DNA of 64,000 bases from a virus (lineage: Duplodnaviria; Caudoviricetes). The position numbers and the translations under genes were made by a program. The stretch spans positions 1 to 64,000 of IMG/VR virus record IMGVR_UViG_3300013936_000023; one strand, written 5' to 3'. The notes beneath the pieces are model-generated. The model was not told the origin of the DNA and searched no databases. It saw only the letters and a program-made list of their open reading frames with translations. Below, piece by piece: positions 36,741-64,000 of this stretch. Numbering within the stretch: position 1 is the stretch's first letter; each line of letters opens with the position of its first letter.

Positions 36741-37256
36741 ATGGCACACTTTAATAAACGATATAATCGCTATGATTTAAGCGGAGATTATGGCGTTGGT
36801 TACACCAGTAAAGGTGAAGAGTTTTATTTTGATTTAGAAGACTACGATAAAATTAAAGATTATTGTTGGGTAATTTCAAAAACCACGGATACCGTTTGTG
36901 CCAGAATGTGCGGAACGAATAAGTTAATCGTAATGCACCGTCTCGTTATGGACGTTGTAAATGCTGGTCGCAATGTTCAGGTTGACCACATTCATCACAA
37001 TCGCCACGACAACAGAAAATCGGAATTGAGAATCTGTAATAATTCTCAAAATTCTATGAATAAAGGTTTACAATCAAACAATACGTCGGGAGTTGCTGGC
37101 GTAAGCTGGGATGAGAAAGATAAACTTTGGCACGCATATATCCAGAAAAATCACGAAAGAACATCGAGATGGTTTAAGAATTATGACGATGCCGTTGCAT
37201 GGAGATTGGAAATGCAAAAGAAAATTTTTGGAGAATATGAATATGTTGAGCATTGA
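36741..37256 (+). CDS. HNH endonuclease with AP2 domain
   Basis: VDHIHHNRHDNRKSELR; NNTSGVAGVSWD...WHAYI. Confidence 0.85.
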   Translation: MAHFNKRYNRYDLSGDYGVGYTSKGEEFYFDLEDYDKIKDYCWVISKTTDTVCARMCGTNKLIVMHRLVMDVVNAGRNVQVDHIHHNRHDNRKSELRICNNSQNSMNKGLQSNNTSGVAGVSWDEKDKLWHAYIQKNHERTSRWFKNYDDAVAWRLEMQKKIFGEYEYVEH

Positions 37257-37301
37257 GAATCGAGCATATTTGAATTTGGGATTTGGAGGAGGTTGGCCAA
37301 A

Positions 37302-38249
37302 ATGACGAATGGGTTTTTGAACCTCTGCGTTGAAAAGAAACTCGGCAAGAAGCCGCTCGTTCCCCACAACCTAAGCTTCAGCCTCATTCCCTATCTCAAC
37401 GCCGTCTGCCGCTCTAATAATCAAGATGCAAAACGGGCGCTGTTTATGGCGTTTGCTAAAGGCGAGAATGAAGCTGAAGCCCTCAAGCAGATGAATGCGG
37501 CATATCGTGTCCAGCGCGAGACGATGACGCGCATGGTTGAGGAGTTGAGCCGACAAGCAGATGGTCAAGTTGAGCGCGGCGACAAGATTTTGTTCGTGCG
37601 CATGGCGAATGATGACAAAGAATATGGTGGGCTTGCGGCAAACAAATTAAAATCCAAATATGGGCTTCCCGTGGTTTGTCTGCGGGAGGCCGACCCAAAC
37701 AACTGGTCTGGCTCTGTGCGTTCGGATTGCGACACACTGGATGCCATGAACGTAACGGGGCTGGCCAAATGCCAAGGTCATAAGAGCGCACATGGCATCA
37801 TGGTACGCAAAGCCGTGTTTGATGAATTTCGCGCATGGGCAAATGAGCAAGATTGGAATCCGCAAGAGCTGACGGCAACTGCCGAGCTGACCGTAGATGA
37901 TATTACACTTGAGCTTTGCGAGCTGCTGGATAGCTCGGCATGGCTTTGGGCTAACGATTTGCCAGCGCCGACATTCTATTGCAAATTTGAAATTCCGCGT
38001 GGCGCAAGCGTGCTATGTGGAGCTGCTGGCAACTGCTTCAGATATACGCCGTTCATCAAATTTGGATGCAATGAGCGCGAGGTTGAGCGGCTGACGGCAG
38101 ACCATGCTCGTACTATCGAGGCGATTGTTGAGCTGACGGTCAACGAGTACATGGGCGTTCGTTATCCTCAAGCGCGTATTGTAGATTGGGAAATTCATGT
38201 TGAACAGCCGCAGGAAGAAAATTTTGATTTTGGTGCAATTTTTTCTTGA
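37302..38249 (+). CDS. RecJ-like exonuclease, C-terminal piece (DHHA1)
   Basis: LSFSLIPYLNAVCR, GGLAANKL...PVV, GSVRS and GHKSAHG motifs. SD GGAGGAGG 9 nt before ATG 37302. Confidence 0.8.
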   Translation: MTNGFLNLCVEKKLGKKPLVPHNLSFSLIPYLNAVCRSNNQDAKRALFMAFAKGENEAEALKQMNAAYRVQRETMTRMVEELSRQADGQVERGDKILFVRMANDDKEYGGLAANKLKSKYGLPVVCLREADPNNWSGSVRSDCDTLDAMNVTGLAKCQGHKSAHGIMVRKAVFDEFRAWANEQDWNPQELTATAELTVDDITLELCELLDSSAWLWANDLPAPTFYCKFEIPRGASVLCGAAGNCFRYTPFIKFGCNEREVERLTADHARTIEAIVELTVNEYMGVRYPQARIVDWEIHVEQPQEENFDFGAIFS

Positions 38250-38274
38250 CAAGCGCGATGGTGTGTGTTATATT
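38246..38274 (+). promoter_or_regulatory. SigmaA promoter
   Basis: TTGACA-17-TATATT. Confidence 0.65.
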
Positions 38275-38306
38275 TTAATCATCAACTAAAGCAAAGGAGA
38301 TTTAAG

Positions 38307-39209
38307 ATGGACATTAAGGAAATTCTTAAAAAGCATAAGATGTGGCTTAACAACGAGATTGGTGGAAAGCGAGCAAACCTGCGTGATGCAGACCTGTGGG
38401 GTGCAGACTTGTGTGGCGTAAACCTGCGTGATGCAGACCTGCGTGGTGCAAACCTGCGTGGTGCAGACCTGAGTGGTGCAAACCTGTGGGATGCAGACCT
38501 GAGTGGTGCAGACCTGTGTTGTGCAGACCTGCGTGGTGCAAACCTGCGTGGTGCAAACCTGCGTGGTGCAAACCTGTGGGATGCAAGCCTGCGTGATGCA
38601 GACCTGCGTGGTGCAAGCCTGCGTGATGCAGACCTGCGTGGTGCAAGCCTGCGTGATGCAGACCTGTGTGGTGCAGACCTGCGTGGCGTAAACCTGCGTG
38701 ATGCAGACCTGTGGGGTGCAGACTTGTGTTGTGCAGACCTGTGGGGTGCAGACCTGTGTTGTGCAGACCTGCGTGGTGCAGACCTGCGTGATGCAGACCT
38801 GCGTGGTGCAAGCCTGCGTGGTGCAAACCTGCGTGGTGCAAAAAACCTCGATAACGTTACATGGTCGATTTATACGGCATTTTATCCGCTTCAGTGTCCA
38901 GAAGAAGGAGAGTATATCGCATGGAAAAAGGCTCATGGCAAGATTGTCAAACTTAAAATTACGGAATCAGCAAAGCGTTCTTCTGCAGTATCTCGAAAAT
39001 GTAGGGCAAGCGAAGCATTGGTTCTTGACATCCAATCTATTGACGGAATGGAACATCTTGAATCGGTTGCAAGTGATAGAGATTCTAATTTCATCTATCG
39101 TGTTGGCGAAATTGTTCGAGTAAATGATTTCGACGAAGATAGATGGAATGAGTGCTCGACTGGAATTCATCATTTTATCACTCGTGAAGAAGCTGTGAAA
39201 TACAACTAA
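38307..39209 (+). CDS. Pentapeptide-repeat protein with conserved C-terminal domain (DUF5758-like)
   Basis: 31 A(D/N/S)L(R/W/C/S)(G/D/C) units; C-terminus CPEEG...KCRASEA...ECSTGIHHF. Confidence 0.85.
   Translation: MDIKEILKKHKMWLNNEIGGKRANLRDADLWGADLCGVNLRDADLRGANLRGADLSGANLWDADLSGADLCCADLRGANLRGANLRGANLWDASLRDADLRGASLRDADLRGASLRDADLCGADLRGVNLRDADLWGADLCCADLWGADLCCADLRGADLRDADLRGASLRGANLRGAKNLDNVTWSIYTAFYPLQCPEEGEYIAWKKAHGKIVKLKITESAKRSSAVSRKCRASEALVLDIQSIDGMEHLESVASDRDSNFIYRVGEIVRVNDFDEDRWNECSTGIHHFITREEAVKYN
38373..38837 (+). repeat. 15-bp tandem coding repeat x31
   Basis: Consensus GCA-RAC-CTG-YGT-GRT. Confidence 0.9.
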
Positions 39210-41010: not shown

Positions 41011-41100
41011 ATAAACATAGGGAACAATCAAGTCGCTCTTGGTTGAGATAACAGCGCTCCTTCGTTGGGCTATGTTTATAAAATAAATATATCTAAGGAG
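41011..41100 (+). promoter_or_regulatory. Three-way-junction/anti-SD leader of endonuclease gene
   Basis: P1 ATAAACATAG/CTATGTTTAT, P2 CAATCAAG/CTTGGTTG, P3 CAGCG/CGTTG. Loop CTCCTT is complementary to AAGGAG (41095-41100). Confidence 0.6.
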
Positions 41101-41110
41101 AGGTATTATA

Positions 41111-41791
41111 ATGAGTAAGCGTTGTGATAATGCTATCGGTAAAAGGGTTGGCATATATGATGTTTTATATAAATGCGACCATAGGGACAAAGACGGTCAT
41201 GAGTTATGTCATGTAAAATGCTCTGTGTGCGGGTGGGAGTCTAATATGAGGCTTTCTCAAATATCGAAAGCTAAGACTTGTACACACATATGTCTTGGAG
41301 GTAAGTTTGTACCAAAGTATTCTTGGAAGTCTCAAAGGCTTAGAAGAATATTTTCTAACATTAAAAGTAGATGCTATGACCCAAGCAACAAATCTTACCG
41401 TTGGTATGGCGGCAAAGGAATTGTCGTATGTGATGAATGGCTGTCAAATCCAGCTTCGTTTGAGGACTGGGCGTTACAAAATGGATATAGTGATGATTTA
41501 ACAATAGACAGGATTGATGAATCTCTTGGCTATTGTCCAGATAATTGTAGATGGATAACAGTCAAAGCTAATTCCAAATATAAATCTACGACAAGAGTTA
41601 TCTACGTAAACGGCGTTGGTCATACGGGAAGAGATTGGGCAAAGATTTTATGTCTTGGCACAAACGTCATCAACAAAATGATGAGAGAATACGACGAGGA
41701 TATTGTCGCAAGATTTATAAGAGCGAGAATGTACAATCCATCCTTAAAAACAAGAAATAAATCTTGGTTAAAGGTTTATGGTTTAATCTAA
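41111..41791 (+). CDS. HNH-type homing endonuclease
   Basis: IKSRCY...YGGKGIVVCDEW...LTIDRID...YCPDNCRW. Confidence 0.8.
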   Translation: MSKRCDNAIGKRVGIYDVLYKCDHRDKDGHELCHVKCSVCGWESNMRLSQISKAKTCTHICLGGKFVPKYSWKSQRLRRIFSNIKSRCYDPSNKSYRWYGGKGIVVCDEWLSNPASFEDWALQNGYSDDLTIDRIDESLGYCPDNCRWITVKANSKYKSTTRVIYVNGVGHTGRDWAKILCLGTNVINKMMREYDEDIVARFIRARMYNPSLKTRNKSWLKVYGLI

Positions 41792-42219: not shown

Positions 42220-43050
42220 ATGAATAAGGCTTATGTTGATTATCTGGTTGGCGAGCAGAAGAGTAGCAACACCATCAAGGCGTATGTCAAGGATGTTGAG
42301 CAGATGCTTGACTATATTGGCAAGCTGGAGGAGAACATCAGCTATGCCGACCTCCTAAACTGGAAGGCGAGCATCAGCAGTATGGCGTCTGCAAGCGTCA
42401 ATCGCAAAATCGTGGCGGTCAGCGGGTACTTCAAGTTCCTGCATGATGTAGATGCCATCAGCACCAATCCTGCGGCGAACCTAAAGAGCGTCAAGGTCCA
42501 CAACAAGGAAAAGCTGGCTATGAGCCGCGAGGACATTTGCAAGATGCTCAACGCTTGCAAGAGCAACCGGCAGAAGGCCATGCTGTATACGCTTGGCGCG
42601 ACTGGTATGCGTGTGAGCGAGCTGACGGGGCTTGGCTATAAGCAGTACCGTGATCGTGTTGATAACCAGCTCGTTATCACAGGTAAGGGTGACAAGCAGC
42701 GCGTGGTTTATTTGAATCATCAGGCGGTCGAGGCTATCAACCTCTACATCCGTACTGAACGCAAGGCTGGCAGCGAGTTTCTGTTTGCCAGCTCTCAAGG
42801 CGGCAAAGTCGATGCTAACAATTTCGACAAAACGCTCAAGGCTTTGGCTCGTAAGGCTGGCGTCAAGAACGCGGATGCTGTTAGCGCTCATACGTTCCGC
42901 CATAGCTTTGCCACGATTCTTTTGAATGAGGGTCAGCCGATTGATGTTGTGTCGAAATTGCTTGGGCACAATAACATTCAGACCACGCTCATTTATGCAA
43001 AGCGCAATGCGCAGACGTTAAGAGCTGCGGGTGTGTCTGTATCGTTTTAG
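42220..43050 (+). CDS. Tyrosine recombinase (XerC/D-like integrase)
   Basis: GMRVSEL, GKGDK, HTFRH, LGH and TTLIY catalytic residues. Confidence 0.9.
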   Translation: MNKAYVDYLVGEQKSSNTIKAYVKDVEQMLDYIGKLEENISYADLLNWKASISSMASASVNRKIVAVSGYFKFLHDVDAISTNPAANLKSVKVHNKEKLAMSREDICKMLNACKSNRQKAMLYTLGATGMRVSELTGLGYKQYRDRVDNQLVITGKGDKQRVVYLNHQAVEAINLYIRTERKAGSEFLFASSQGGKVDANNFDKTLKALARKAGVKNADAVSAHTFRHSFATILLNEGQPIDVVSKLLGHNNIQTTLIYAKRNAQTLRAAGVSVSF

Positions 43051-46132: not shown

Positions 46133-47158
46133 ATGACATTCTTAGATTGGGCAAGCACAAGCCCTGAGATTCGATTCACAGTAAGCAAGTATGATGGCCT
46201 ACATTGCAATCCCAATGCGGCATATGCTTATAAAGAGCGCGGGTTACTAATGGGTTGCGAAGAGCGCATCAAGGCGGCTATCGGTGTTAATAGTGGCCAC
46301 GTGTTGTATTTTAGATGCGCAACGGAGGCGATTGAATGGTTGGTCAATACGGTAGGCGGCAGCAGATTGGCATGGTCGCATAGCCCATATGAACACGATG
46401 CTTGTCTGATAGGAGCAACGGCCAAACCAAATGAAATTATCGGCGCGGATTTTTACATTCATCAATGGGTCAATCATATTACGGGAGAAATTTTCGACCT
46501 GAAGAAAATTCGGGCAGAGTTAGACGAAGATTGCCGTCTGGTTGTAGATGCTACGGCAGGATTTGGTAAAGCCAAGCTGCCACGAGACATTGACAATATT
46601 GCCGATGCGCTGTTCATGTCGGGACACAAGATTGGATGTCCCGACCTTTCGTTCATGTGGATCAACGACGAGCTTTGTGAATGGCTTGGAGCGGCTAAGG
46701 ATATCCGTAACCAATGGGGTTTACATCATGGCAGCTTAAGCGTGGCGAGCGTGCTGGCATTGGCCGATGCTGTTGAGTGGGCGTGTGAAAATGGCGACCG
46801 AGTAGATGGGCATGGTATTGACCTGTATGTGCAGATGAACAATCTTCTTGACGAGGCTTGTATTGAGCACCACGATGTGATTGGGTGTCAAATGTTTGCG
46901 GGGTCTATCAACGCCATTCGCCTCAATGGCATCAATGCCGATGCTCTACAGCAGTTCCTTGCTTCGCGCAACGTCTACATTGGCGTAGGTGGCTCGGCTT
47001 GCTCTGCGGCGCATGACCATCGCGTGTTGCGGGCATATGGCCTGACAGATGATGAAGCGGCTGAGATTATCAGGGTGTCGTTTGGGCCAGAGACGACAGC
47101 AGATGATATTAAAGCGCTGGTTGACGGCATCAAGGAATATCGTAAGCGGTTTTGCTAA
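46133..47158 (+). CDS. Cysteine desulfurase-like PLP enzyme (class V aminotransferase)
   Basis: VDAT, SGHK (PLP lysine), GGSAC (catalytic Cys) and IRVSFG motifs. Confidence 0.8.
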   Translation: MTFLDWASTSPEIRFTVSKYDGLHCNPNAAYAYKERGLLMGCEERIKAAIGVNSGHVLYFRCATEAIEWLVNTVGGSRLAWSHSPYEHDACLIGATAKPNEIIGADFYIHQWVNHITGEIFDLKKIRAELDEDCRLVVDATAGFGKAKLPRDIDNIADALFMSGHKIGCPDLSFMWINDELCEWLGAAKDIRNQWGLHHGSLSVASVLALADAVEWACENGDRVDGHGIDLYVQMNNLLDEACIEHHDVIGCQMFAGSINAIRLNGINADALQQFLASRNVYIGVGGSACSAAHDHRVLRAYGLTDDEAAEIIRVSFGPETTADDIKALVDGIKEYRKRFC

Positions 47159-47168
47159 AATTTAATAC

Positions 47169-47197
47169 TTGACAAATCTCCTCTTGTGTGGTATCAT
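47169..47197 (+). promoter_or_regulatory. SigmaA promoter with anti-SD spacer
   Basis: TTGACA-17-TATCAT; spacer CTCCTCTT is complementary to AAGAGGAG. Confidence 0.7.
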
Positions 47198-47230: not shown

Positions 47231-47887
47231 ATGGAAGAAATTTGGAAAGATGTAATCGGGTATGAAGGTTTGTATGAAGTTAGCAATTTCGGATTGGTGC
47301 GCAGCGTTGATAGAGTTGTAACAAGGAAAACTGATGGTGCTTTATGTTATCTAAGGGGTAAAAAGTTGACTCAGCAAATTGATTCCAGTGGTAGATATTG
47401 GATGGTTGCTTTAAGTAAAAATGGTATTGAGAAAAGCTATAAAGTTCATTCATTGGTCGCAAAAGCATTCTTACCAAATGACGGCTCCTCCTTGGTTGTT
47501 GTGCACAAGGATGAAAAGAATCTGAAATATGATGGCGTATGCAACAACAGAGTTGACAATCTTGAATGGGGAACGCTGGCAGAGAATAGTTCCAGTCCTG
47601 TTGCGAGAGAGCGCAATGCGGCATCTAAGAATATGGTTGGCGAAAACAATCCAATGTACGGTAAAACTCAATCTGAAGAGACGAGAAGGAAAATTTCTAT
47701 TAAACTCAAAGGTAAGGGTGGGAGAATATCTCGTTCAAAGAAGGTCATGTGTGACGGAGTTTTATATGACTGTGTAACGGACTGTGCGGCAGCGTATAAC
47801 GTAAAGGCTTGTACTATGATGTCTTGGTTGCGCGGTGATAGACCCATGAGAAAAGATTTTAGAGAGAGAGGGCTTACCTATGTCTAA
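47231..47887 (+). CDS. NUMOD4-HNH homing endonuclease
   Basis: EEIWKDVIGYEGLYEVSNFG; VHSLVA...VVHKD...NNRVDNLEW; NUMOD3-like GKTQSEETR. Confidence 0.85.
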   Translation: MEEIWKDVIGYEGLYEVSNFGLVRSVDRVVTRKTDGALCYLRGKKLTQQIDSSGRYWMVALSKNGIEKSYKVHSLVAKAFLPNDGSSLVVVHKDEKNLKYDGVCNNRVDNLEWGTLAENSSSPVARERNAASKNMVGENNPMYGKTQSEETRRKISIKLKGKGGRISRSKKVMCDGVLYDCVTDCAAAYNVKACTMMSWLRGDRPMRKDFRERGLTYV

Positions 47888-50800
47888 TTATACCATTTTA
47901 CATTGTCACACCATGTTATCAAACGCCGTGACTAACATCGACTCTGTAACGACATATCAGCAATATGTTGACAGGGCTAAAGAGTTGGGCATGACAGCTA
48001 TGGCGATATCCGAGCATGGCTCAGTTATGGGCTGGGTCAAAAAGAAATTGGCAATGGAAGCCGCTGGTATAAGGTTCATTGCAGCCGAAGAATTTTACTT
48101 GACCAACACGCTCGACGAAAAGATTCGAGACAACTACCATTGCTTGCTCATCGCCAAGAATTATGACGGCGTACTTGAGCTGAACAAGTTGTCGAGCAAA
48201 TCTTTCAATCGAGACGACAATTCGTTCTACTATGTGCCGCGCATCACTATTGAGGATGTCAAGAACACCAGTGACAACATCATCGTATCAACGGCGTGTT
48301 TGGGCGGCGTGCTTAACAAAGCACCTGAGCCTATTCGCCAAGATTTTTTTGATTGGCTATGCCAGCATCCCGACCGTTGCTTTCTTGAAGTTCAGCCGCA
48401 TATCAGCGCAGAGCAGAAACGATATAATCAAGCGCTTTGGGCGTTGAGCAAACGTAGTGGATTGCGGCTGCTGATGTGTACAGATACCCATGCGCTCAAC
48501 GCCGAGCATGTGGAAGGTCGCAAGATTTTACAAAAGGCCAAGAGCATCCACTTTGACGGCGAGGATGAATTTCATCTTGAGATGTTGAGCTATGATGAGC
48601 TTGTACGGCTATGTCAGCTCCAGAACGCCTTGCCCATGCAAGTTTATCTCGACGCCATTGAGATGACGAATACGGTGGCGGATATGGTTGAGCCGTTTGA
48701 GCTGGACTATTCCTACAAGTACCCGCACCTTTGGGGTGATGATAGCGAACAGGTGCTTAGAGCCAAGATTGCAGATGGCATTAAATGGCGCGGCGTTGAT
48801 AAGCTGCCCAACTACCAGCAGTATCTTGACCGCATTGAGTATGAAATGAAGGCATATATCCATAATGGCGCTATTGATTTCATGTTGTTGATGGAGGATA
48901 TTGTGGCATGGTGTCGCACACAGGATATTCTAATCGGTTATGGGCGAGGGTCGTGCACGGGCAGTCTGATTGCCTATCTGCTCGGCATCACAGAGATGGA
49001 CAGCATCAAGCACGGCCTTAATTTCGACCGCTTCATGAATGTGGAGCGTGTGTCACTGAGCGACATTGATAGCGACATCGCTCCAAACAGAATTGACGAG
49101 GTTAAGGATTATGTGTTCAATAAGCACGGTCTGTACTGCGCCGATATTGTCACATTTAACACCATTGCCCTGAAGGGTGCCGTGCGAGATGTTGGCCGTG
49201 CATTAGGTATGTCGCTTGATGAAGTCGGCGCAATATGCAACGTGGTCGAACAGGATGAGGCTGGATGCCGCGCTAAATATCCGGAGTTGTTCGAATATGT
49301 CGATATAGTAAACGGCTGCGTGGTGTCTGTGGGCAACCATCCTTCGGGCATGATAGTAGCACCGCACAGCATTGATGACCGCATGGGGCTATTCACCACA
49401 TCTACGGATACGGTGCCTATTAGCCAAATCAATATGAAAGAGGTTGACCTTCAGAACTACGTTAAGCTCGATTTGCTGAAATTGATAACCATACAGATTA
49501 TCAATGAGACTTGCAAAATGATTGGCATAGACAGATTGACGCCGGATAATATAGACGTAAATGATGTGGCTGTGTGGCAGTCTATTAGAGATGATACAAC
49601 GGCCATATTCCAGTGGGAGTCGAGTTCGGCACAGCGGTATATCAAGCAGCTGCTGTCAGATAATACTATTGCCAAGTTGCGCAAGGTGCAGCCCGATATT
49701 GACTATATCACATTGCTGTCTATGGGTAATGGTGCCATTCGCCCCGCTGGCGCATCATATCGTGATGAATTGGCAAACGGCGATATTAGAACCTATGACA
49801 ATGAAGCAATCAACAATTTCATGTCTGATACATTCGGCTTCTTGATTTTCCAGTGTCAGATTATCGGCTTTTTGCACCAATACTGTGGCTATACTATGGG
49901 CGAGGCCGATGTTGTGCGTCGTCATTTTGCCAAAAAAACAGGCACAGATAAGGATATCCCGCAAATCAAGGCTGGCTTTGCCAAGACTATGAGGGAACAG
50001 TATGGAATGAGCCAAGAGGAGTCCGACAAGACCATTGCCGATTTTATCCAGGTCATTGAAGATGCCAGCAACTATCTATTCAGCCTAAATCATAGTCAGC
50101 CGTATAGCTATGAGGGATATGCCGAAGGATGGCTTAGATATTATTATCCGGTACAATTCCTGACCGTATGCCTCAACGTTGAACAGGGCGATGACGGCAA
50201 GACGGCGGCATTGACAGCATACGCCCATAAGCTGGGCATCAAAATTAAATCGCCGCAGTTCCGTCATTCCAAGTCTGATTATTTCTGCGACGTTGACACC
50301 AAGTCCATATACAAAGGTCTTGGCTCAATCAAGTATATGAGCGCCGCAGTAGCCGAAGAATTGTACACCATGCGCGACCAGCAATTTGGCAATTTTATTG
50401 ATTTTCTGTTCGCCATGCAGTCTATGACCAATAAGCCTGATAGCCGCCAGCTTGACATCCTTATCAAGATTGGGTACTTTGAGGAATTTGGCCCAGCCAA
50501 GGCGCTGTTGCTTGGCGTAGAGATTTTTAATAAATTTTTCAAGTGCAAGAATTTAAGGCTTGACAAATGGGCTGAGATGGGTTATGATATAGCCGTCCTA
50601 AAGGCCAACGCTGCCAAGCTCACAGATAAGACGGCGAGCGGCATTGACAATCATGGGCTTATCTTGGGTATTCTGCGGTCGTTGAAAATGCCGCGCACGA
50701 CCATTGTTGACAAGCTCAGATGGCAATTCGAGATGCTTGGATATGTTGATGGTTCTGACTCACGCCGAGACGTCAATGAATATCTCGTGCTTGCCATCGA

Positions 50801-51032
50801 GACAACAAGTTATGGTGCGATATGGCTTAGGCTATATAACCTTGCCTACGGTGCTGAACGACGTTACAAGGTTGACAAGCGATGGGCAGCAAGCCATAGC
50901 TGCAAGACTGGCGATGTGCTCAAGGTTGTGCTGGATGAGAAGCCAAAATTCAAGAAACTTGATGATGGCAAATTCGTCAAGACTGGCGAGGTCGAGACGG
51001 TTGTGAAAATGTTTAAGGTTTTGGAGGTTTGA
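47880..51032 (+). CDS. dnaE: DNA polymerase III alpha subunit (PHP plus polymerase)
   Basis: LHCHT PHP domain; GRGSCTGS, SDIDSD, HPSG, KLDLL and FSLNHS motifs. Confidence 0.92.
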   Translation: MSNYTILHCHTMLSNAVTNIDSVTTYQQYVDRAKELGMTAMAISEHGSVMGWVKKKLAMEAAGIRFIAAEEFYLTNTLDEKIRDNYHCLLIAKNYDGVLELNKLSSKSFNRDDNSFYYVPRITIEDVKNTSDNIIVSTACLGGVLNKAPEPIRQDFFDWLCQHPDRCFLEVQPHISAEQKRYNQALWALSKRSGLRLLMCTDTHALNAEHVEGRKILQKAKSIHFDGEDEFHLEMLSYDELVRLCQLQNALPMQVYLDAIEMTNTVADMVEPFELDYSYKYPHLWGDDSEQVLRAKIADGIKWRGVDKLPNYQQYLDRIEYEMKAYIHNGAIDFMLLMEDIVAWCRTQDILIGYGRGSCTGSLIAYLLGITEMDSIKHGLNFDRFMNVERVSLSDIDSDIAPNRIDEVKDYVFNKHGLYCADIVTFNTIALKGAVRDVGRALGMSLDEVGAICNVVEQDEAGCRAKYPELFEYVDIVNGCVVSVGNHPSGMIVAPHSIDDRMGLFTTSTDTVPISQINMKEVDLQNYVKLDLLKLITIQIINETCKMIGIDRLTPDNIDVNDVAVWQSIRDDTTAIFQWESSSAQRYIKQLLSDNTIAKLRKVQPDIDYITLLSMGNGAIRPAGASYRDELANGDIRTYDNEAINNFMSDTFGFLIFQCQIIGFLHQYCGYTMGEADVVRRHFAKKTGTDKDIPQIKAGFAKTMREQYGMSQEESDKTIADFIQVIEDASNYLFSLNHSQPYSYEGYAEGWLRYYYPVQFLTVCLNVEQGDDGKTAALTAYAHKLGIKIKSPQFRHSKSDYFCDVDTKSIYKGLGSIKYMSAAVAEELYTMRDQQFGNFIDFLFAMQSMTNKPDSRQLDILIKIGYFEEFGPAKALLLGVEIFNKFFKCKNLRLDKWAEMGYDIAVLKANAAKLTDKTASGIDNHGLILGILRSLKMPRTTIVDKLRWQFEMLGYVDGSDSRRDVNEYLVLAIETTSYGAIWLRLYNLAYGAERRYKVDKRWAASHSCKTGDVLKVVLDEKPKFKKLDDGKFVKTGEVETVVKMFKVLEV

Positions 51033-51036
51033 TGCT

Positions 51037-51159
51037 ATGGGAAGAAAAATCGATGTGGATGCTTTAATTGATTGGCTTGAAGACGGCTATGATGAAGACC
51101 ATGCTTTTGCTGAAGGATTGCTTAGGGCTACGAGTGAGGAGGATGGTGGCAATGACTGA
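51037..51159 (+). CDS. Small acidic protein (40 aa)
   Basis: MGRKIDVDALIDWLEDGYDED...; RBS GGAGG. Confidence 0.5.
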   Translation: MGRKIDVDALIDWLEDGYDEDHAFAEGLLRATSEEDGGND

Positions 51160-51451
51160 ATACATTGAGCGTGAAGCGGCGCTCAGAGAAATTGAACGGC
51201 GCGAGAAGTTTATGGTTGGCGACAAGACTATTACGACGGATGCCATGAAATCGTTTATCAAGAATCGCCCTGCCGCTGACGTTGCGCCGGTGGTACATGC
51301 CAAGTGGGGCACGGGCCGGTTCAATCTGGAAACAGGAAACTATGAGGAACAGTGCACCCGATGCCGGAAATTCTCTAAAGAGTATTGCGTGCCGTACTGC
51401 CCCAACTGCGGCGCGAAGATGGACGGAGGTGAGAGAGATGCCAGCGTGTAA
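51152..51451 (+). CDS. Hypothetical protein with Zn ribbon
   Basis: MTEYIEREAAL...PAADVAPV...CTRC...CPNCGAKMD. Confidence 0.7.
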   Translation: MTEYIEREAALREIERREKFMVGDKTITTDAMKSFIKNRPAADVAPVVHAKWGTGRFNLETGNYEEQCTRCRKFSKEYCVPYCPNCGAKMDGGERDASV

Positions 51452-51701
51452 AGCGTGCGGCGAATGGTTCGCCAAATCCAGAGATGACATGGTGCTTTGC
51501 AGCAAGTGTGAAATGGCATTAGGACGATTGGCTGGTTACGCCGTGGTCGTGACGCGGTGCAAAGACTGTCGAGGCTCTCGCAAGCTGAACCGAAACGACA
51601 GGCTGGAAGATGTCTATACAGAAGGGGTTTTGTGGTGCATGAATCAGTCTAATGGCGTATGGCCGGATGATTTTTGCAGCTATGGCGAGCCGAAGTTTTG
51701 A
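51438..51701 (+). CDS. Cys-rich hypothetical protein
   Basis: MPACKACG...RCKDC...DDFCSYGE; RBS GGAGGTG. Confidence 0.65.
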   Translation: MPACKACGEWFAKSRDDMVLCSKCEMALGRLAGYAVVVTRCKDCRGSRKLNRNDRLEDVYTEGVLWCMNQSNGVWPDDFCSYGEPKF

Positions 51702-51726
51702 CAAATGCAAAATTCTATGATATAAT
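51698..51726 (+). promoter_or_regulatory. SigmaA promoter (probable original ATPase promoter)
   Basis: TTGACA-17-TATAAT. Confidence 0.7.
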
Positions 51727-51767
51727 ATCAAATGCTGAATAAAGGCAGAAAGTGAGGATATAAGAAT

Positions 51768-51839
51768 ATGGGGATTGCAGTCAAGAATTTTCAAAAAAAA
51801 GTTCTTGACAACGGCATCTGGATGCGATATAATCTATAA
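51768..51839 (+). pseudogene. Vestigial 5' stub of the AAA ATPase gene (MGIAV...)
   Basis: ATG GGG ATT GCA GTC with RBS GAGGA mirrors the ATPase start ATT GGG GTA GCT GTT at 52503. Confidence 0.6.
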
Positions 51840-51930
51840 TAGAGGTTGAGATAAGGTTGCAAACTTTCTCATTTAGGACAACGTGCTTACTCCGCGTTGT
51901 CCACTCTAATAAAAATTTCTTGAGTAAGGA
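51805..51930 (+). promoter_or_regulatory. Promoter plus three-way-junction/anti-SD leader (copy A)
   Basis: TTGACA-17-TATAAT; P3 GGACAACG/CGTTGTCC; loop CTTACTC pairs with GAGTAAG (51922-51928). Confidence 0.75.
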
Positions 51931-51939
51931 GAATGTAAG

Positions 51940-52503
51940 ATGGAAGAAATCTGGAAAGATGTTGTTGGATATGAGGGTTTATACGAGGTAAGTAATCTTG
52001 GTAATGTGCGTAGCTTGTTTCGGTACAAGAAACAACTCAAGTGGAACGTCTTGAGTTCTGGCTATGCGACTGTTCAACTTTTCAAAGAAAAAGTTGGTAC
52101 AAGATTGCTTGTACATCGACTTGTCGCCAAGGCATTCTTACCCGATCCAGATGGATTACCGGTCGTCAACCACAAAGACGAAAACAAATTAAATAATAGC
52201 GCGGACAATCTTGAGTGGTGTACTCAACAGTATAACTTAGCTTATAACGACGGGCATAGAAAAAGAGCCGACAACACGCGCTGGTTCTATGATGAAATGC
52301 GTGTAAGGTTCAAAGAAAATAATCCCGCTATAAAATTGCCAGTCGTTCAGATGAGTTTGTCTGGCGAATTTATAAAAGAATGGCCAAGCGCCAAAGATGC
52401 AGTTGTTGCGCTTGGCTATAAATCAGACCATATCTGTGAATGTTGCAAAGGGAAACGAGAGACATCTAATGGATTTAGATGGAAATATAGGGAGGTAATT
52501 TAA
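51940..52503 (+). CDS. NUMOD4-HNH-NUMOD1 homing endonuclease
   Basis: EEIWKDVVGYEGLYEVSN; VHRLVA; VNHKDENKLNN..DNLEW; EWPSAKDA. Confidence 0.85.
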   Translation: MEEIWKDVVGYEGLYEVSNLGNVRSLFRYKKQLKWNVLSSGYATVQLFKEKVGTRLLVHRLVAKAFLPDPDGLPVVNHKDENKLNNSADNLEWCTQQYNLAYNDGHRKRADNTRWFYDEMRVRFKENNPAIKLPVVQMSLSGEFIKEWPSAKDAVVALGYKSDHICECCKGKRETSNGFRWKYREVI

Positions 52504-53150
52504 TTGGGGTAGCTGTTTTGATTCTTGGTGAATCCGGCTCTGGTAAGTCGGCGTCCATGCGAAACTTTGCGGAGAATGATGTTCGCATTCTGAATGTGGC
52601 ATCTAAGCCGCTGCCGTTCAGAAATGTTAACAAGCTCAAGAAGGCCGATAAGGCAACCTATGGCATGATTCGTGGCGCTGTTACGAGTGGCCAGACGTTG
52701 AGCTATGTAGTGGATGACGCGCAGTATCTCATGGCGTTCGAGAGCTTTGACAAGGTGAACGAGACAGGATATGGCAAGTTTACCACCATGGCTAAGAACT
52801 ATGAAGAAATGCTGAGATGCATTCAGGAGGACACGTCGCCCGACACCATCGTCTATGTTATGCAGCACGTTGACGTCGATGAAAATGGCAAGGTAAAGGC
52901 AAAGACGCTCGGCAAGATGCTTGACCAGCAGCTCACGGTTGAGGGGTTATTCACGATTGTTCTGCTTGCCAAGGCAGATGAACGCCGCCATTATTTTATC
53001 ACCCAGTCTGATGGCATGAATCCGTGTAAGTCGCCGATGGGGATGTTCGACGAAGTTGAGATTGACAACGACCTCAAGATGGTCGATGACACCATCAGAG
53101 AATATTATGGACTGAAGAAGAATACTGCGCCGAGTAAAAAAAGTCCTTGA
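52503..53150 (+). CDS. Sak4-like/AAA_24 ATPase, probable ATT start
   Basis: ILGESGSGKS, VVDD and KSPMGMF motifs; SD GGAGGT 6 nt before ATT; paired with SSB gene. Confidence 0.8.
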   Translation: MGVAVLILGESGSGKSASMRNFAENDVRILNVASKPLPFRNVNKLKKADKATYGMIRGAVTSGQTLSYVVDDAQYLMAFESFDKVNETGYGKFTTMAKNYEEMLRCIQEDTSPDTIVYVMQHVDVDENGKVKAKTLGKMLDQQLTVEGLFTIVLLAKADERRHYFITQSDGMNPCKSPMGMFDEVEIDNDLKMVDDTIREYYGLKKNTAPSKKSP

Positions 53151-53272
53151 CAAAAGCATCCGGATGTGATATAATCCATAATAGAGGTTGAGATAAGGTT
53201 GCAAACTTTCTCATTTAGGGCAACGTGCTTACTCCGCGTTGCCCACTCTAATAAAATTTCTTGAGTAGGGAG
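53147..53272 (+). promoter_or_regulatory. Promoter plus three-way-junction/anti-SD leader (copy B)
   Basis: Near-identical to copy A, with a compensatory A-T to G-C change in P3 (GGGCAACG/CGTTGCCC) and GAGTAGG target. Confidence 0.75.
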
Positions 53273-53280
53273 AATGTAAA

Positions 53281-53937
53281 ATGAGTGCTCTGAAAGATTT
53301 AACTGAGAAACGCTTTGGAAAGTTGATCGTATTACGTAGGAGTGGCAATGATAAACATAAGAATGCGACGTGGTTGTGTCAGTGCGATTGTGGAAACAGA
53401 TGTAATGTCGTAGGTGCAAATCTTTGGCGAGGCGATACAAAGTCTTGCGGATGTTATAAGAAAACCAATAAATACGAAGAAGATGGGGCCGTAACAAGAA
53501 TCCATCTCACGAATGGCTCTGTTGTGTTAGTTGACACCGAAGATGTTCCTAAGATATCAATGTACCAATGGAGTATCGCACGTGGATATGCCGTAGCAAC
53601 GATTAACAATAAAACAACATCTATGCATCGACCAATAATGGACGCCAAAGACGGATTTGTTGTTGACCATATCAATCATAACGAGCTTGATAACAGGAAG
53701 AGTAACTTGCGCGTGTGCACTCAAAGCAATAACGCCATGAATCGTAAAAAGGCAAGCAATAACACGTCTGGATATATAGGTGTCGTGTTTAAGAAAGATT
53801 GTGGTAAATGGGAGGCATTTATTCGAGTTGACAAGAAGCGAAAATATTTAGGGTTATTTGAAACGCCAGAGCTTGCTCACGAAGCTCGCAAAGAAGCCGA
53901 AGAAAAATATTTTGGTGAGTTCGCCTATCAAGGCTAA
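53281..53937 (+). CDS. HNH-AP2 homing endonuclease
   Basis: DLTEKRFGKL...WLCQCDCG; VDHINHNELDNRKSNLR; NNTSGYIGV; YLGLF. Confidence 0.85.
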   Translation: MSALKDLTEKRFGKLIVLRRSGNDKHKNATWLCQCDCGNRCNVVGANLWRGDTKSCGCYKKTNKYEEDGAVTRIHLTNGSVVLVDTEDVPKISMYQWSIARGYAVATINNKTTSMHRPIMDAKDGFVVDHINHNELDNRKSNLRVCTQSNNAMNRKKASNNTSGYIGVVFKKDCGKWEAFIRVDKKRKYLGLFETPELAHEARKEAEEKYFGEFAYQG

Positions 53938-53977
53938 CGATAGATTTCAATAAATTTCAGAAAGGATTCAAAAAAGT

Positions 53978-54628
53978 ATGAGAAAGGTAGATTTAAGCAA
54001 GGTTCAGGAAGCTGGTAGCGGTAACTACAAGAAGTTGCCCGTAGGAGGTTATGTTATCCGCATCTTAAAGTGCGAAGACGTTCCCGACAAAAATCGTCTC
54101 GATTTTTACTTTGACATTGACGAAGGCGAGTACAAAGGATTCTATGGCGAGAAGTACAAGAACGATACTCGCGAGACGAAGAAGTGGGGTGGCCGTTTCT
54201 CTAAGTCTTACGACTCAAGTAACGAAAAGGCGCTGCCGTTCTTCAAGCAGTTTGTAACGGCTGTTCAGAACAGCAATAAGGGCTTTGTGTGGGATGAAGA
54301 GCACGAGCAGCAGTTTGTTAAGAAGGTTGTTGGAGCGACCTTTAGGGAGGAAGAGTATCAAGGCAATAACGGAAAGATTCAGACGAGTTGCAAGCCTGAT
54401 ATGTTCCATAGCGCCGATAAGATTCGCAAGGGAGATTTTGAGGTTAGAGAGCTGAAGAAGCTCGACGCAACCAAGGTATCCAGTCAGACTAAGCAGGATG
54501 ATTTTACTGACCCGTTTGCAAATCAGGACAACACGAAGGCCGCAAGTGACCCGTTTGCCAGTGCGCCCGCTAATGATGCCCTTGGTGATGCTACCGCACC
54601 TTGGGATACGGAGAACCCTTTCGCCTGA
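53978..54628 (+). CDS. Phage ssDNA-binding protein (DUF669-like)
   Basis: KLPVGGYVIRI...REEEY; acidic tail ending ENPFA; follows the Sak4-like ATPase. Confidence 0.65.
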   Translation: MRKVDLSKVQEAGSGNYKKLPVGGYVIRILKCEDVPDKNRLDFYFDIDEGEYKGFYGEKYKNDTRETKKWGGRFSKSYDSSNEKALPFFKQFVTAVQNSNKGFVWDEEHEQQFVKKVVGATFREEEYQGNNGKIQTSCKPDMFHSADKIRKGDFEVRELKKLDATKVSSQTKQDDFTDPFANQDNTKAASDPFASAPANDALGDATAPWDTENPFA

Positions 54629-54642
54629 GATAAAAAATATTG

Positions 54643-54681
54643 AGAGGCGGGCTTGACAAAGGCTCGCCTCTTTGCTATAAT
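54643..54681 (+). terminator. Terminator hairpin overlapping a sigmaA promoter
   Basis: AGAGGCGGGC/GCTCGCCTCT stem plus TT, with TTGACA in the loop; TATAAT at 54676. Confidence 0.7.
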
Positions 54682-54704
54682 ATCCAACAAGAGGTGATGA
54701 GCTG

Positions 54705-61075: not shown

Positions 61076-61282
61076 ATGACAGTAGCCGAGCTTATCTGGA
61101 AGCTCTTGTACTATCCATATGATATGGAAGTTAAGGTCTGCGTAAGGCCAAGAGTTGAACCAGCGGCAAGTGTAGGCCCAAGCGTCGATATTGACACCAA
61201 CAAAACATCAATAGTTATCTACGGCGATAAGCCATATGATATGTTCAAGGAGGTATCAGCAGTTGCAAGTTACAAAGCGTGA
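61076..61282 (+). CDS. Small hypothetical protein
   Basis: MTVAELIWKL...; RBS AAAGGAGG. Confidence 0.6.
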   Translation: MTVAELIWKLLYYPYDMEVKVCVRPRVEPAASVGPSVDIDTNKTSIVIYGDKPYDMFKEVSAVASYKA

Positions 61283-64000
61283 TGGCCGAAAGGTCGAATT
61301 TGATTCAGACAAGATTGTCAAGGCAATCACCAAGGCGTTCGTCGAGGTTTATCCTGACGGCGTGACTGGTGAGATGCAGGAATGCGCGCATCGCATTGCC
61401 AATGAAATTGCCGCTAAGGACGGCATGACGGTTGAGGAGATTCAGGACGCCGTTGTTCGCAAGCTCATGGCAAGCAAATGGAAAGACGTAGCCAAGACCT
61501 ACGTTGAGTACCGCTATCTACATCAGATGGCGCGTAGCCAGTATGCCCAGCTCATGGACGCCATTGCCGAAAAGCTGGAGGCGCGAGATGTCAAGAACCA
61601 AAATGCAAATGTTGATGAGCACAGCTTTTGCGGGCGCGTGGGTGAGGCCAGCAGTGTTGTTAACAAAAAGTATGCGCTGGAATATCTGGTCTCGCCGATG
61701 GCTAAAGCGAACCATATCAACAATGAAATTTACATCCATGACCTTGACAGCTATGCAGTTGGTATGCACAATTGCTTCCAGCGTGATACAAAGTTCCTCA
61801 CAACTGAAGGCATTAAGAAATTTTCAGATTTCAGGGATGGCGATAAAGTTAAAGTTCTCACGAAGGATGGCAACTGGAATGAAGCAACCGTCCATTGTTA
61901 TGGTCGACAGTCTATGTATCGTGTAACTCTGCGTAGAGGCAATCTCGTTAAGAGTTTTAATTGTACAAGAAATCATCGCTGGGTTTTGTGCGATGGTTCG
62001 GTTACGGATAATCTTCAGGTTGGAGATAGGCTGGTACCACTTGATATTGGCTCGGCGCTCAACTATGTTGAAGAACGTGAGGCAGACGAGTTTCTTGGCA
62101 TGACAAAAAGAGAAGCTGATATGTTCTGCTTTGGCTTTGTTATCGGCGATGGTTGCGATCATGGCAACAACATTCAGGCAAGAATCTGTGGAGACAAGGC
62201 AAAGTACCTTAAGCCGTTTGAGATTGCTCAGTATCGTAAGTCCTACATCAAAGATTCCAGCGATATTCTGTGCTTTAAGCAAGCGGAGTTTCATAAGCAA
62301 GAATTCCTTGACCATGAGATGTGGCGTCTTTTGTCTTTCGCCGACAAGGTGGAAGTATTTGCTGGTTACATGGCGGCAGACGGTAGCAAGACCACCTCAA
62401 CCAAACTTGTGTGGACTTCTGATGTTCGTGTGCTCAACATGATTAAAGACCTGTCGGCTTTGTGTGGATATCACATTCACCACATTCGCGAAATCAAGAA
62501 CAGCACAAACTATGCCGCAGACAGAATCTTGTATGAGGTTACGTTTACAACGTCTTATAGCGCAAACAGCACTTGGACGGTTACGAATATCGTTAAACAG
62601 TCAAACTCCGACTATGAGGCATGGTGTGTGGAAGAACCCAGTACCCATACGTTCACGCTTGATGGAGGAATTGTGACCGGCAACTGTTTGAGTATTCCGT
62701 TTGATGACCTGTTAGCCAACGGCTTCAATACTCGTCAGACGGATGTGCGCCCTGCTCAGAGCATCAACACGGCATTCCAGCTTGTGGCGGTCATTTTCCA
62801 GCTCCAGAGCCTCCAGCAATTTGGTGGTGTTAGCGCAACACATCTTGACTGGACGATGGTTCCTTATGTGCGCAAGTCGTTCGCCAAACATTGGAACGAT
62901 GGATGTAAGTATGTCGAGAATAGTATGGTAAAAGGCATCCCGCCTATCAACGGGAGCATCGACGACAAGTTCTTCACAAGTATGCCGAGAGCATATCAAT
63001 ACGCCATGGATATGACGGAGCGTGAATGTTATCGGGCCGTCGAAGGTATGTATCATAACCTCAATACTCTCCAGAGCCGTTCTGGCAATCAGCTGCCGTT
63101 CAGTTCCATCAACTATGGTACGTGCACATTGCCCGAAGGCCGCATGGTCATTAAAGCTTTACTGGACGTTTCTATTAAGGGCATGGGGAAACTCCACAAG
63201 ACCAGCATCTTCCCCTGCGGTATTTTCCAGTGTATGGATGGCGTGAATCGCCATGAAGGCGAACCTAACTACGACCTGTTCAGGCTGGCACTCAAGTCTA
63301 CAAGTCTGCGGCTGTACCCAAACTACGCCAACGTAGATTGGTCTGGTAATGCTGGCTACGACCGCAATGACCCTCGGACGTATTTTAGCACGATGGGTTG
63401 CCGTACTGCTAATGGCTGGGACATCAACGGCTTTGGGCAGCTTAAGGATGGGCGCGGCAACATCTGCCCTGTGACCATCATCATGCCGACTCTGGCCATG
63501 GAGGCCGAGGAGAGGGTTGACACCTTTACTGAGGACAACCAGCCAGATGTGGTTGAGATATTCATGCAACTGCTCGACCAGAAAATCCATGAAGCTAAAG
63601 ATATGCTCATTGAGCGCTTCAATTGGATTTGCTCACAGAGTCCAGACAGCGCCAAGTTCATGTATGAAAACCACACCATGGCTGGCTATATTCCTGAAGA
63701 GGGCATCCGCTCGGCGCTCAAGCATGGTACGCTTGCCATTGGTCAGCTTGGCCTTGCTGAGACATTGCAAATCTTGATTGGCTGCGACCATACCACGTCT
63801 AAAGGCATGGAGCTAGCCAAGCGTATCGAGCAGTTGTTCAAAGACCGCTGTGCTGAGTTCAAGGATCAGGAGCATCTAAATTTTGGCGTATACTATACGC
63901 CCGCAGAAAACCTTTGTTACACGGCCATGCAGAAGTTCAAGGCGCGTTACGGCGAAATTTCTAATGTCTCTGACAAGGATTTCTTCACCAATAGCATCCA
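61263..64000 (+). CDS. nrdD: Anaerobic ribonucleoside-triphosphate reductase, partial, intein-containing
   Basis: TTG start with AAGGAGG. ATP-cone MQVTKRDGRKVEFD; NQNANVDE, IYIHDLD, QFGG, TLQSRSGNQLPFSSINYG, MGCRT, GRGNI and TPAENL motifs. Open to the window end. Confidence 0.92.
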   Translation, partial: MQVTKRDGRKVEFDSDKIVKAITKAFVEVYPDGVTGEMQECAHRIANEIAAKDGMTVEEIQDAVVRKLMASKWKDVAKTYVEYRYLHQMARSQYAQLMDAIAEKLEARDVKNQNANVDEHSFCGRVGEASSVVNKKYALEYLVSPMAKANHINNEIYIHDLDSYAVGMHNCFQRDTKFLTTEGIKKFSDFRDGDKVKVLTKDGNWNEATVHCYGRQSMYRVTLRRGNLVKSFNCTRNHRWVLCDGSVTDNLQVGDRLVPLDIGSALNYVEEREADEFLGMTKREADMFCFGFVIGDGCDHGNNIQARICGDKAKYLKPFEIAQYRKSYIKDSSDILCFKQAEFHKQEFLDHEMWRLLSFADKVEVFAGYMAADGSKTTSTKLVWTSDVRVLNMIKDLSALCGYHIHHIREIKNSTNYAADRILYEVTFTTSYSANSTWTVTNIVKQSNSDYEAWCVEEPSTHTFTLDGGIVTGNCLSIPFDDLLANGFNTRQTDVRPAQSINTAFQLVAVIFQLQSLQQFGGVSATHLDWTMVPYVRKSFAKHWNDGCKYVENSMVKGIPPINGSIDDKFFTSMPRAYQYAMDMTERECYRAVEGMYHNLNTLQSRSGNQLPFSSINYGTCTLPEGRMVIKALLDVSIKGMGKLHKTSIFPCGIFQCMDGVNRHEGEPNYDLFRLALKSTSLRLYPNYANVDWSGNAGYDRNDPRTYFSTMGCRTANGWDINGFGQLKDGRGNICPVTIIMPTLAMEAEERVDTFTEDNQPDVVEIFMQLLDQKIHEAKDMLIERFNWICSQSPDSAKFMYENHTMAGYIPEEGIRSALKHGTLAIGQLGLAETLQILIGCDHTTSKGMELAKRIEQLFKDRCAEFKDQEHLNFGVYYTPAENLCYTAMQKFKARYGEISNVSDKDFFTNSI
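61773..62684 (+). mobile_element. Intein (304 aa) with LAGLIDADG endonuclease in nrdD
   Basis: Begins CFQRDTKFLTTEG; block B CTRNHRW; FGFVIGDG and AGYMAADG motifs; ends HTFTLDGGIVTGN before Cys+1. Exteins join as MHN-CLSIPFDDLL. Confidence 0.9.

Follow-up and report, generated by a model that had tools for sequence, protein, structure and literature searches.

A free-standing I-HmuI-like endonuclease cassette at the 5' end of a phage sak4-like ATPase gene

Genes and signals at the sak4 locus

We analysed a 64,000-nt stretch of DNA from a gut phage, hereafter called the window, which is part of a 74.8-kb phage record in IMG/VR. The analysis focused on a gene coding for a Sak4-like ATPase (called sak4 below) and on the homing endonuclease cassette present at its 5' end. 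The locus is found in the replication and recombination module of the phage, in which dnaE (47880-51032) is followed by two small genes, the sak4 region and a gene of the phrog_18107 family, while later genes of the module include those of a DnaB-like helicase, a RecD-like helicase and NrdD. All features of the sak4 region described here are on the plus strand, and all relatives used for comparison are metagenomic contigs, designated by L numbers where they need to be told apart.

The sak4 frame comprises 215 codons (52503-53150) when read from an ATT codon. In-frame after this ATT come GGG GTA GCT GTT TTG ATT CTT GGT GAA and then the Walker A motif GESGSGKS (residues 9-16). The product matches the phrog_2872 profile (E = 9e-67), with residues 2-207 aligned to profile positions 2-216, and this full-length match makes it a P-loop ATPase of the Sak4-like family of single-stranded DNA-annealing proteins, with a predicted annealing function.

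Upstream of the cassette lie the signals of the resident sak4 gene. A perfect sigma-70 promoter (51698-51726; 12/12 consensus match) consists of TTGACA at 51698, a 17-nt spacer and a TG-extended TATAAT that ends at 51726. The ribosome-binding site (RBS) GTGAGGA (51752-51758) is located 9 nt 5' of an ATG, which begins the five codons ATG GGG ATT GCA GTC (MGIAV; 51768-51782). The open reading frame (ORF) opened by this ATG is a stub of 23 codons that ends at 51839. Between codon 5 and the cassette proper are 11 nt of junction filler (51783-51793; AAGAATTTTC plus the first A of an A-run), which occur neither in the cassette-free alleles nor in the second copy of the leader described below. In the stub frame the filler reads KNF, followed by QKKVLD, loosely like the DnaE C-termini of relatives. 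We considered whether KNFQKKVLD stems from the 3' end of a donor dnaE gene, and we retain this idea as a weak hint only, given that the likeness is loose and mostly due to a shared -35 box.

The extra DNA found in the window after codon 5 amounts to ~720 nt. In it, a promoter and a structured leader precede a full-length HNH gene, which is followed by another set of codons 1-5. The promoter and leader (51794-51939) start with an A-tract, followed by a -35 box at 51805-10 and a -10 box at 51828-33, again with a 12/12 match. The HNH gene (51940-52503) codes for a protein of 187 residues, called HNH1, with matches to the Pfam families NUMOD4, HNH_3 (38.7 bits for a cut-off of 24.8) and I-HmuI_NUMOD-like and to phrog_59 of PHROGs. 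It aligns over its full length with I-HmuI (PDB 1U3E; E = 1.7e-22), and the catalytic His and Asn residues are aligned as well (NHKD…NKLNN…NLEW in HNH1 and DHKD…NKDNN…NLRW in 1U3E). As judged from its sequence, HNH1 is a free-standing homing endonuclease of the I-HmuI-like HNH type. It carries its own promoter and its own Shine-Dalgarno sequence (SD), and it is out of frame with sak4.

The 149-nt segment that runs from 51794 to the ATG of HNH1 recurs at 53136-53283, with 93% identity, before a different HNH gene. The consensus fold of the leader, which measures ~100 nt, has three helices, P1 (51847-71), P2 (51876-51902) and P3. In P2, seven of the nine pairs show compensatory changes, 98% of the cells are paired, and the covariation score exceeds those of all 500 shuffles and of all slid controls. 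The predicted leader structure is thus backed by covariation. P2 was also considered as a terminator and was not called as one by the consensus scan. In P3, UUUCUU (51916-21) pairs with the SD of the endonuclease gene, AGGAGA (51927-32), both in the single-sequence fold and in 9/9 leader copies; as the P3 pairs never vary, and hence never covary, this pairing is predicted but unproven.

A covariance model of the leader, R1, found it in nine endonuclease cassettes flanking sak4 and nowhere else, with three different types of ORFs behind it; one of the matches, in L014, was outside the set from which the model was built. At E ≤ 0.1, R1 had no additional match anywhere in the genome, inside or outside the window, 41011-41113 included.

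Cassette-free alleles, the right junction and the ATT start

Ten related IMG/VR loci encode the ATPase at 79-98% identity. The window, L006, L015, L046 and L047 carry HNH1 at the locus and L013 has a degenerate copy, whereas HNH1 is absent from L007-L012, L014, L044, L045 and L136. When there is no HNH gene upstream, sak4 starts with ATG GGW GTA GCW GTT, with ATG GGT ATC AGT GTG or, once, with TTG. In contrast, when HNH1 is upstream, the start is always ATT GGG GTA GCW GTT.

The best protein match (94% identical) is on the cassette-free contig L044, in which a -10 box, leader and RBS shared with the window lead directly into the ATPase gene, ATG GGA ATT GCA GTG CTC GTC CTT GGG GAA (MGIAVLVLGESG). 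The 71-kb contig L136 has the same arrangement, with MGVAV (MGVAVLVLGESG), so that the two products start with MGIAV… or MGVAV… and go on with LVLGESG. The shared upstream segment of the window is 91% identical by BLAST over 51717-51781, the GTGAGGA motif precedes the sak4 ATG in both contigs, and the resident codons 1-5 of the window match the L044 start at 13/15 positions. Among the 120 best homologues of the ATPase, nine start with MGIAV, six of them with exactly MGIAVLILGESG.

The initial annotation had described the promoter, the RBS, the stub and the overlap of the HNH stop with the ATT, all of which we recovered at the same coordinates. It had further proposed that the insert lies within codon 5 of the gene and that cassette-free relatives would have an MGIAV start at this position. 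Compared with alleles that have the same promoter and RBS, sak4 is indeed interrupted after codon 5, and L044 and L136 do start with MGIAV and MGVAV, respectively, at that point. A search of IMG/VR for the exact MGIAVLILGES start with a degenerate DNA pattern gave no match, and the allele was found later through a protein database. The relatives of orf139, at 28 loci, include none outside the lineage of the window with sak4 downstream, and no cassette-free allele came from them.

Alignment of the window with L044 delimits the insert. On the left, homology ends at position +15 of the stub (13/15 identical, then random), and it resumes in sak4, where the right copy of the first codons is identical at 9/15 positions over +1 to +15 and at 35/45 over +16 to +60. 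The two 15-nt copies in the window match each other at 10/15 positions only. The initial annotation had taken the downstream copy as recoded. This applies to the ATG to ATT change, the only one found in all cassette-bearing and no cassette-free copies. The other differences between the two copies also occur among cassette-free alleles, and the GGG of codon 2 is also present in the stub; they are ordinary allelic differences that appear to come from the sak4 5' end of the donor. The initial idea that recoding destroys the target of the enzyme is therefore conjectural. Past codon 6-10 or so, each cassette-bearing sak4 gene resembles the cassette-free alleles of its own lineage. Both junctions are bridged by independent contigs: L006/L137 and, in runs from pig gut and manure, Logan contigs of relatives (85-95% identical). 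The junctions are not an assembly artefact.

At the right junction, the TAA stop codon of HNH1 (52501-03) shares its last A with the ATT (52503-05). The SD that would serve sak4, GGGAGG (52490-52495), is located within the last HNH1 codons, 7 nt 5' of the ATT, and (A/G)GGAGG is found in 7/7 ATT alleles. The whole junction, GGAGG(T/A)AATTTA directly followed by ATT GGG GTA GCW GTT, is common to these seven alleles (window, L006, L013, L015, L046, L047 and L130), despite only 75-78% identity between the HNH proteins of the window/L006 group and those of the L015/L046/L047 group. The SD inside the HNH 3' end and the stop/start overlap, both noted at first reading, are thus common to the ATT alleles, as is the supply of replacement codons 1-5 with an ATT start. 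We define the cassette-linked 5' tract of sak4, i.e. the part that follows the donor allele, as 52503-52534, with ATT GGG GTA GCT GTT as its first 15 nt; the near-identity with L006 ends at 52534.

Several observations bear on how such a gene is translated. The ATT occupies the position of the ATG of cassette-free alleles, the phrog_2872 profile aligns with the product from residue 2 onwards, and L015, L046 and L047 have no canonical in-frame start before codon 32 or 48, past the P-loop/Walker A motif. L130 has kept the SD, the TAA and the ATT, although its HNH gene is gone. The 215-codon frame is intact in the seven alleles, and the ratio of nonsynonymous to synonymous substitution rates (dN/dS) of sak4 is 0.01-0.03, and 0.01 between the two stub-bearing alleles, which indicates strong purifying selection. 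Given the position of the ATT, the ideal spacing of a strong SD, the retention in seven alleles, the lack of canonical starts, the dN/dS values and the state of L130, AUU initiation aided by the overlap with the upstream stop codon is the most likely mechanism for Sak4. A -1 frameshift fusing HNH1 to Sak4 was also considered and discarded, as the HNH frame contains no slippery site.

As I-HmuI itself is intron-encoded, sak4 could in principle be restored by splicing of a group I or II intron, and the ATT start might also denote a dead, decaying gene. Both ideas are scarcely credible. A search of Rfam with positions 51000-54200 on both strands returned no family at E ≤ 1. The element brings a promoter of its own, and splicing would leave codons 1-5 either missing or repeated; moreover, the same cassette occurs in other genomes that lack an upstream 'exon'. 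Because of the empty Rfam search and of these genomes, splicing seems neither needed nor possible at the sak4 locus, in line with the initial proposal that the element is silent without it. As to a pseudogene, the dN/dS values and the seven intact frames speak against it.

We therefore consider it probable that a free-standing cassette 5' of sak4 carries a fixed start module for its neighbour, with sak4 remaining whole, initiated at the ATT and coupled to the HNH gene. The mobile unit would end in that module, made of the SD in the HNH end, the TAA/ATT overlap and donor codons 1-5 (up to ~10), and translation of Sak4 would follow that of HNH1, with no splicing involved. Some points weigh against this interpretation. 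Initiation at the ATT is inferred, not observed. No donor genome was found that has the exact filler sequence of the left junction. The nick site and the protective role of the ATT, both discussed below, are proposed by analogy with I-HmuI (PMC3017599). Finally, the window and L006 have an in-frame TTG at codon 6 (52518), which is a possible alternative start located 22 nt from the SD.

Initiation at this TTG, giving MILGESG…, has in its favour that the codon is canonical and is the start that ORF callers report. It is nevertheless improbable, given its distance from the SD and the absence of a TTG in L015, L046, L047 and L130, which keep the ATT. Moreover, the product would lack most of its first beta-strand, which precedes the P-loop and is kept in all homologues.

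Left junctions, the stub and the spread of the cassette

While the right junction is constant, the left junctions of the ATT alleles are of four types. In the window and L006, the junction comes after sak4 codon 5. In L046 and L047, the cassette starts right after the old sak4 RBS and spacer, at the position of the ATG in the cassette-free sister L010, with which L046 is isogenic up to the old RBS. In L015 and L013, it abuts dnaE, with the -35 box within the last dnaE codons and without the small genes that otherwise separate dnaE from sak4. In L130, the junction follows the old sak4 ATG, which opens an unrelated ORF of 67 residues in place of the HNH gene. This ORF is at ~2803-3003 of the reverse complement (L130 being in reverse orientation), and all that it has in common with the cassette are its last 14 nt, which comprise the SD and the stop codon.

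The stub-bearing form itself has moved recently. From the stub ATG to sak4 +32 (51768 to 52534), the window and L006 differ by 7 mismatches in 767 nt, i.e. 99% identity, whereas the flanks are 71-92% identical, with a mismatch every 6-10 nt directly downstream of the block, and the synonymous divergence (dS) across sak4 is 0.66. These contrasts show a recent spread of this form among diverged genomes, in which the conversion tracts measured only tens of bases. As sak4 past codon 6-10 follows its own lineage, the travelling unit consists of the promoter and leader, HNH1, and 15-32 nt from the start of sak4.

Other copies are degenerate. In L013 (3521-4001), the leader is kept and the endonuclease is truncated at its N-terminus, with the catalytic His region lost; in L014 (4701-5100), the leader is kept and the endonuclease ORF is fragmented. 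Both correspond to the usual decay phase of the endonuclease life cycle, while the catalytic motif is intact in the window.

A second endonuclease cassette lies at the other end of sak4 (53135-53937, plus strand), with a leader (53136-53280) and the gene of HNH2 (53281-53937), an HNH_3 plus AP2 protein. Its left end supplies the last codons of sak4, SKKSP followed by TGA, and the TGA is inside its -35 box. L006, which is devoid of this second cassette, has the tail VKASK before its stop codon, and pig-gut contigs with loose ends at 53134 have a cassette-free sak4 tail at the same point. Both ends of sak4 have thus been remodelled by endonuclease cassettes. At the 3' end of sak4, L044 and L136 also carry this leader, followed by a different ORF.

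A further duplication is found in recJ, which is in two pieces, a DHH fragment (35995-36735) and a DHHA1 plus OB fragment (37293-38249). Between them lies the gene of a 171-residue homologue of HNH2 (36741-37256; 37% identity, E = 8e-28). A 24-nt sequence, ATTGARAATCGAGCATATYTRAAY (IENRAYLN), is present at 36694-36717 and again at 37252-37275; the copies match at 20/24 positions, and the four differences are all synonymous. In the relative L126, the N-terminal fragment of RecJ ends with IENRAYLNLGFGG…, with no HNH gene behind it, which identifies the downstream copy in the window as what was originally the 3' end of that fragment, now orphaned. The geometry is thus opposite to that of sak4, and the endonuclease belongs to a family different from that of HNH1.

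These data bear on the meaning of the stub. One interpretation, close to the initial annotation, is that it is part of a design, with homing always occurring precisely between codons 5 and 6, each time with a recoded duplicate, as a general intron-free strategy. In agreement with it, the 99%-identical block of the window and L006 extends from the stub, or from a point just 5' of it, to sak4 +32, so that the element spreads in that form; recJ has a flanking duplication with synonymous differences only; and the second cassette likewise replaces the last codons of sak4. We nonetheless regard a designed stub as unlikely. L015, L013, L046, L047 and L130 have the identical right junction without any stub, the ATG to ATT change is the single cassette-specific nucleotide change, and recJ differs in its geometry and its endonuclease family.

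The varied left junctions of the same cassette thus argue that the stub is a lineage-specific by-product of the resolution of one transfer rather than a built-in feature, and insertion at codon 5 does not hold as a property of the element. Nor is the stub simply dead, as had been assumed at first. It is part of the block that is 99% identical in L006, and in the window/L006 lineage it forms the end of the left homology arm rather than inert debris. For recJ, the duplication and its synonymous nature proved real, whereas the claim of one common signature and a general strategy is not borne out by the reversed geometry and the different HNH family.

The short direct repeats that flank the inserts, 15 nt at sak4 and 24 nt at recJ, could also be read as target-site duplications, produced by a staggered cut and fill-in as in transposition, with the copies diverging later. 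At sak4, this reading is highly improbable. The downstream copy matches the cassette haplotype of stub-less lineages at 14-15/15 positions, while the upstream copy matches L044 at 13/15, and because the two copies differ in origin, a simple duplication is excluded. Furthermore, a cassette that is 99% identical to that of L006 leaves too little time for 5/15 differences to arise.

We propose that the transfer of the start module took place as follows. By analogy with I-HmuI, the enzyme would nick a cassette-free sak4 gene within a few bases of its start codon, and a co-infecting genome would serve as the template from which repair copies the cassette, the conversion tracts being very short. In the lineage of the window, the left end of the transferred DNA was joined after resident codon 5, and the resident promoter, RBS and five codons remain in place. 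The change from ATG to ATT may shield the carrier against the enzyme that it encodes, and sak4 would thereby also come to need the 3' end of the endonuclease gene for its expression. A nick adjacent to the start codon would agree with the short conversion tracts as well as with a protective role of the ATT; we take it as a lead, not a result.

A bolder extension of this scheme, which we put forward as a tentative possibility, is that the endonuclease holds on to the start of sak4. The ATT would remove its own nick site, AUU initiation would require the SD and overlap provided by the endonuclease gene, such that deletion of the latter would silence sak4, and the structured leader RNA, common to unrelated endonuclease genes on either side of sak4, would time the expression of these genes. 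That a degenerate copy (L013) and a replaced one (L130) keep the exact 3' module is consistent with this idea.

Other selfish elements, known systems and significance

The genome is rich in selfish elements, with four HNH_3 family matches. The fourth HNH_3 gene is at ~64617, just beyond the window. A third endonuclease gene in the window (47231-47887), coding for a protein with NUMOD4, NUMOD3, a weak HNH_3 match and an I-TevI DNA-binding domain, has its own promoter (47165-47197) and a stop codon that overlaps the start of dnaE (ATGTCTAA). In the NrdD ORF (61236-63998), residues 180-252, between the ATP-cone and the reductase core, have a Hint (intein-type) match that is weak and below the Pfam cut-off (E = 0.00038; 20.9 bits for a cut-off of 32.1), and which suggests an intein.

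Other observations concern the wider window. Promoters of a near-consensus family (TTGACAAAT, ~17 nt, TG-n-TATAAT) are found 5' of many plus-strand genes between 29468 and 54681, four of them with a 12/12 match within 51000-54700. An ORF at 38265-39209 contains ~40 tandem 15-nt units (38313-38915), and its product is pentapeptide-repeat-like (ADLRGANLRG…). The phage also encodes a class-V aminotransferase, cysteine-desulfurase-like protein (46133-47158) and a tyrosine integrase (42220-43050). In a search for the host, the junction pattern had no match in GTDB genomes; a scan of the same genomes for sak4 gave 70 stretches that matched peptide patterns, none of which was confirmed as a relative by tblastn. 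A nucleotide search of GenBank phages returned a single 33-nt match only.

By its sequence features, the sak4 case would be an instance of intronless homing by a free-standing I-HmuI-like endonuclease. Like the seg and mob endonucleases of T4, HNH1 is found between or in genes, with no intron or intein, and is present or absent among related phages; the T4-type elements also spread by gene conversion with co-conversion of flanks, and have their own promoters and RBS hairpin control (PMC2988022). RBS hairpins are a known control of T4 endonuclease genes, and the cut sites of the T4 enzymes are hundreds to thousands of bp away from the gene of the enzyme itself (PMC2988022). Unlike these, the conversion tracts at the sak4 locus measure tens of bases, so that the cut is probably at the junction, and the cassette carries the translation start of the neighbouring gene with its ATT codon. 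Also, unlike the arrangement in which a T4 late promoter is inside the hairpin, the promoter of the cassette would transcribe the whole predicted SD-pairing hairpin.

I-HmuI and I-BasI, the intron-encoded nicking HNH enzymes of the Bacillus phages SPO1 and Bastille, are close to HNH1 in view of the full-length alignment and the catalytic His and Asn residues. They nick 3 nt downstream of the insertion site, in a degenerate site of ~24 bp (PMC3017599), a geometry that would fit a target at the start of sak4 and very short conversion tracts. I-HmuI, however, resides in a group I intron of a DNA polymerase gene. HNH1 is instead encoded by a free-standing gene with a promoter of its own, and its presumed target is a sak4-like ATPase gene.

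HNH genes within coding sequences are also known from genes in pieces, i.e. mobE in nrdA of the Aeromonas phage Aeh1 and mobA in the T4 topoisomerase gene, where the upstream part takes its stop codon, and the downstream part its start codon, from the insert (PMC2988022). In those cases two large parts have to reassemble into one enzyme, whereas the upstream piece of sak4 is only MGIAV, which is dispensable since the insert brings duplicate codons, and the downstream ORF is full-length. The recJ locus of the same phage is closer to the genes-in-pieces type than is sak4. The HNH element in a methylase gene of phage ShiLan (PMC11855218) likewise homes actively, with no intron or intein and a functional host protein. 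In ShiLan, however, the reading frame of the methylase gene continues through the insert, which adds a loop to the protein, and the HNH is encoded in a different frame, while sak4 would be restarted after the endonuclease. The mobE/nrdA and mobA splits (PMC2988022) and the ShiLan read-through insertion (PMC11855218) are the closest published cases. To our knowledge, an element that carries the start module of its neighbour with a conserved ATT, in an ORF and without splitting the protein, is new.

If our interpretation is correct, the cassette illustrates a third route, besides introns and inteins, by which a selfish endonuclease may lie within a coding sequence harmlessly, by bringing spare codons, an RBS and a start. 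The junctions, the cassette-free alleles and the short tracts define a small candidate target for a putative new nicking enzyme of the I-HmuI-like type. The case also calls for caution in annotation, as gene callers would truncate the ATPase to the codon-6 TTG, and its relatives much further, to codon 32 or 48. The ATT, kept across lineages with ~24% divergence of the endonuclease protein, offers a natural and testable case of AUU initiation by coupling, and sak4 may be a host gene that has been made dependent on its parasite.

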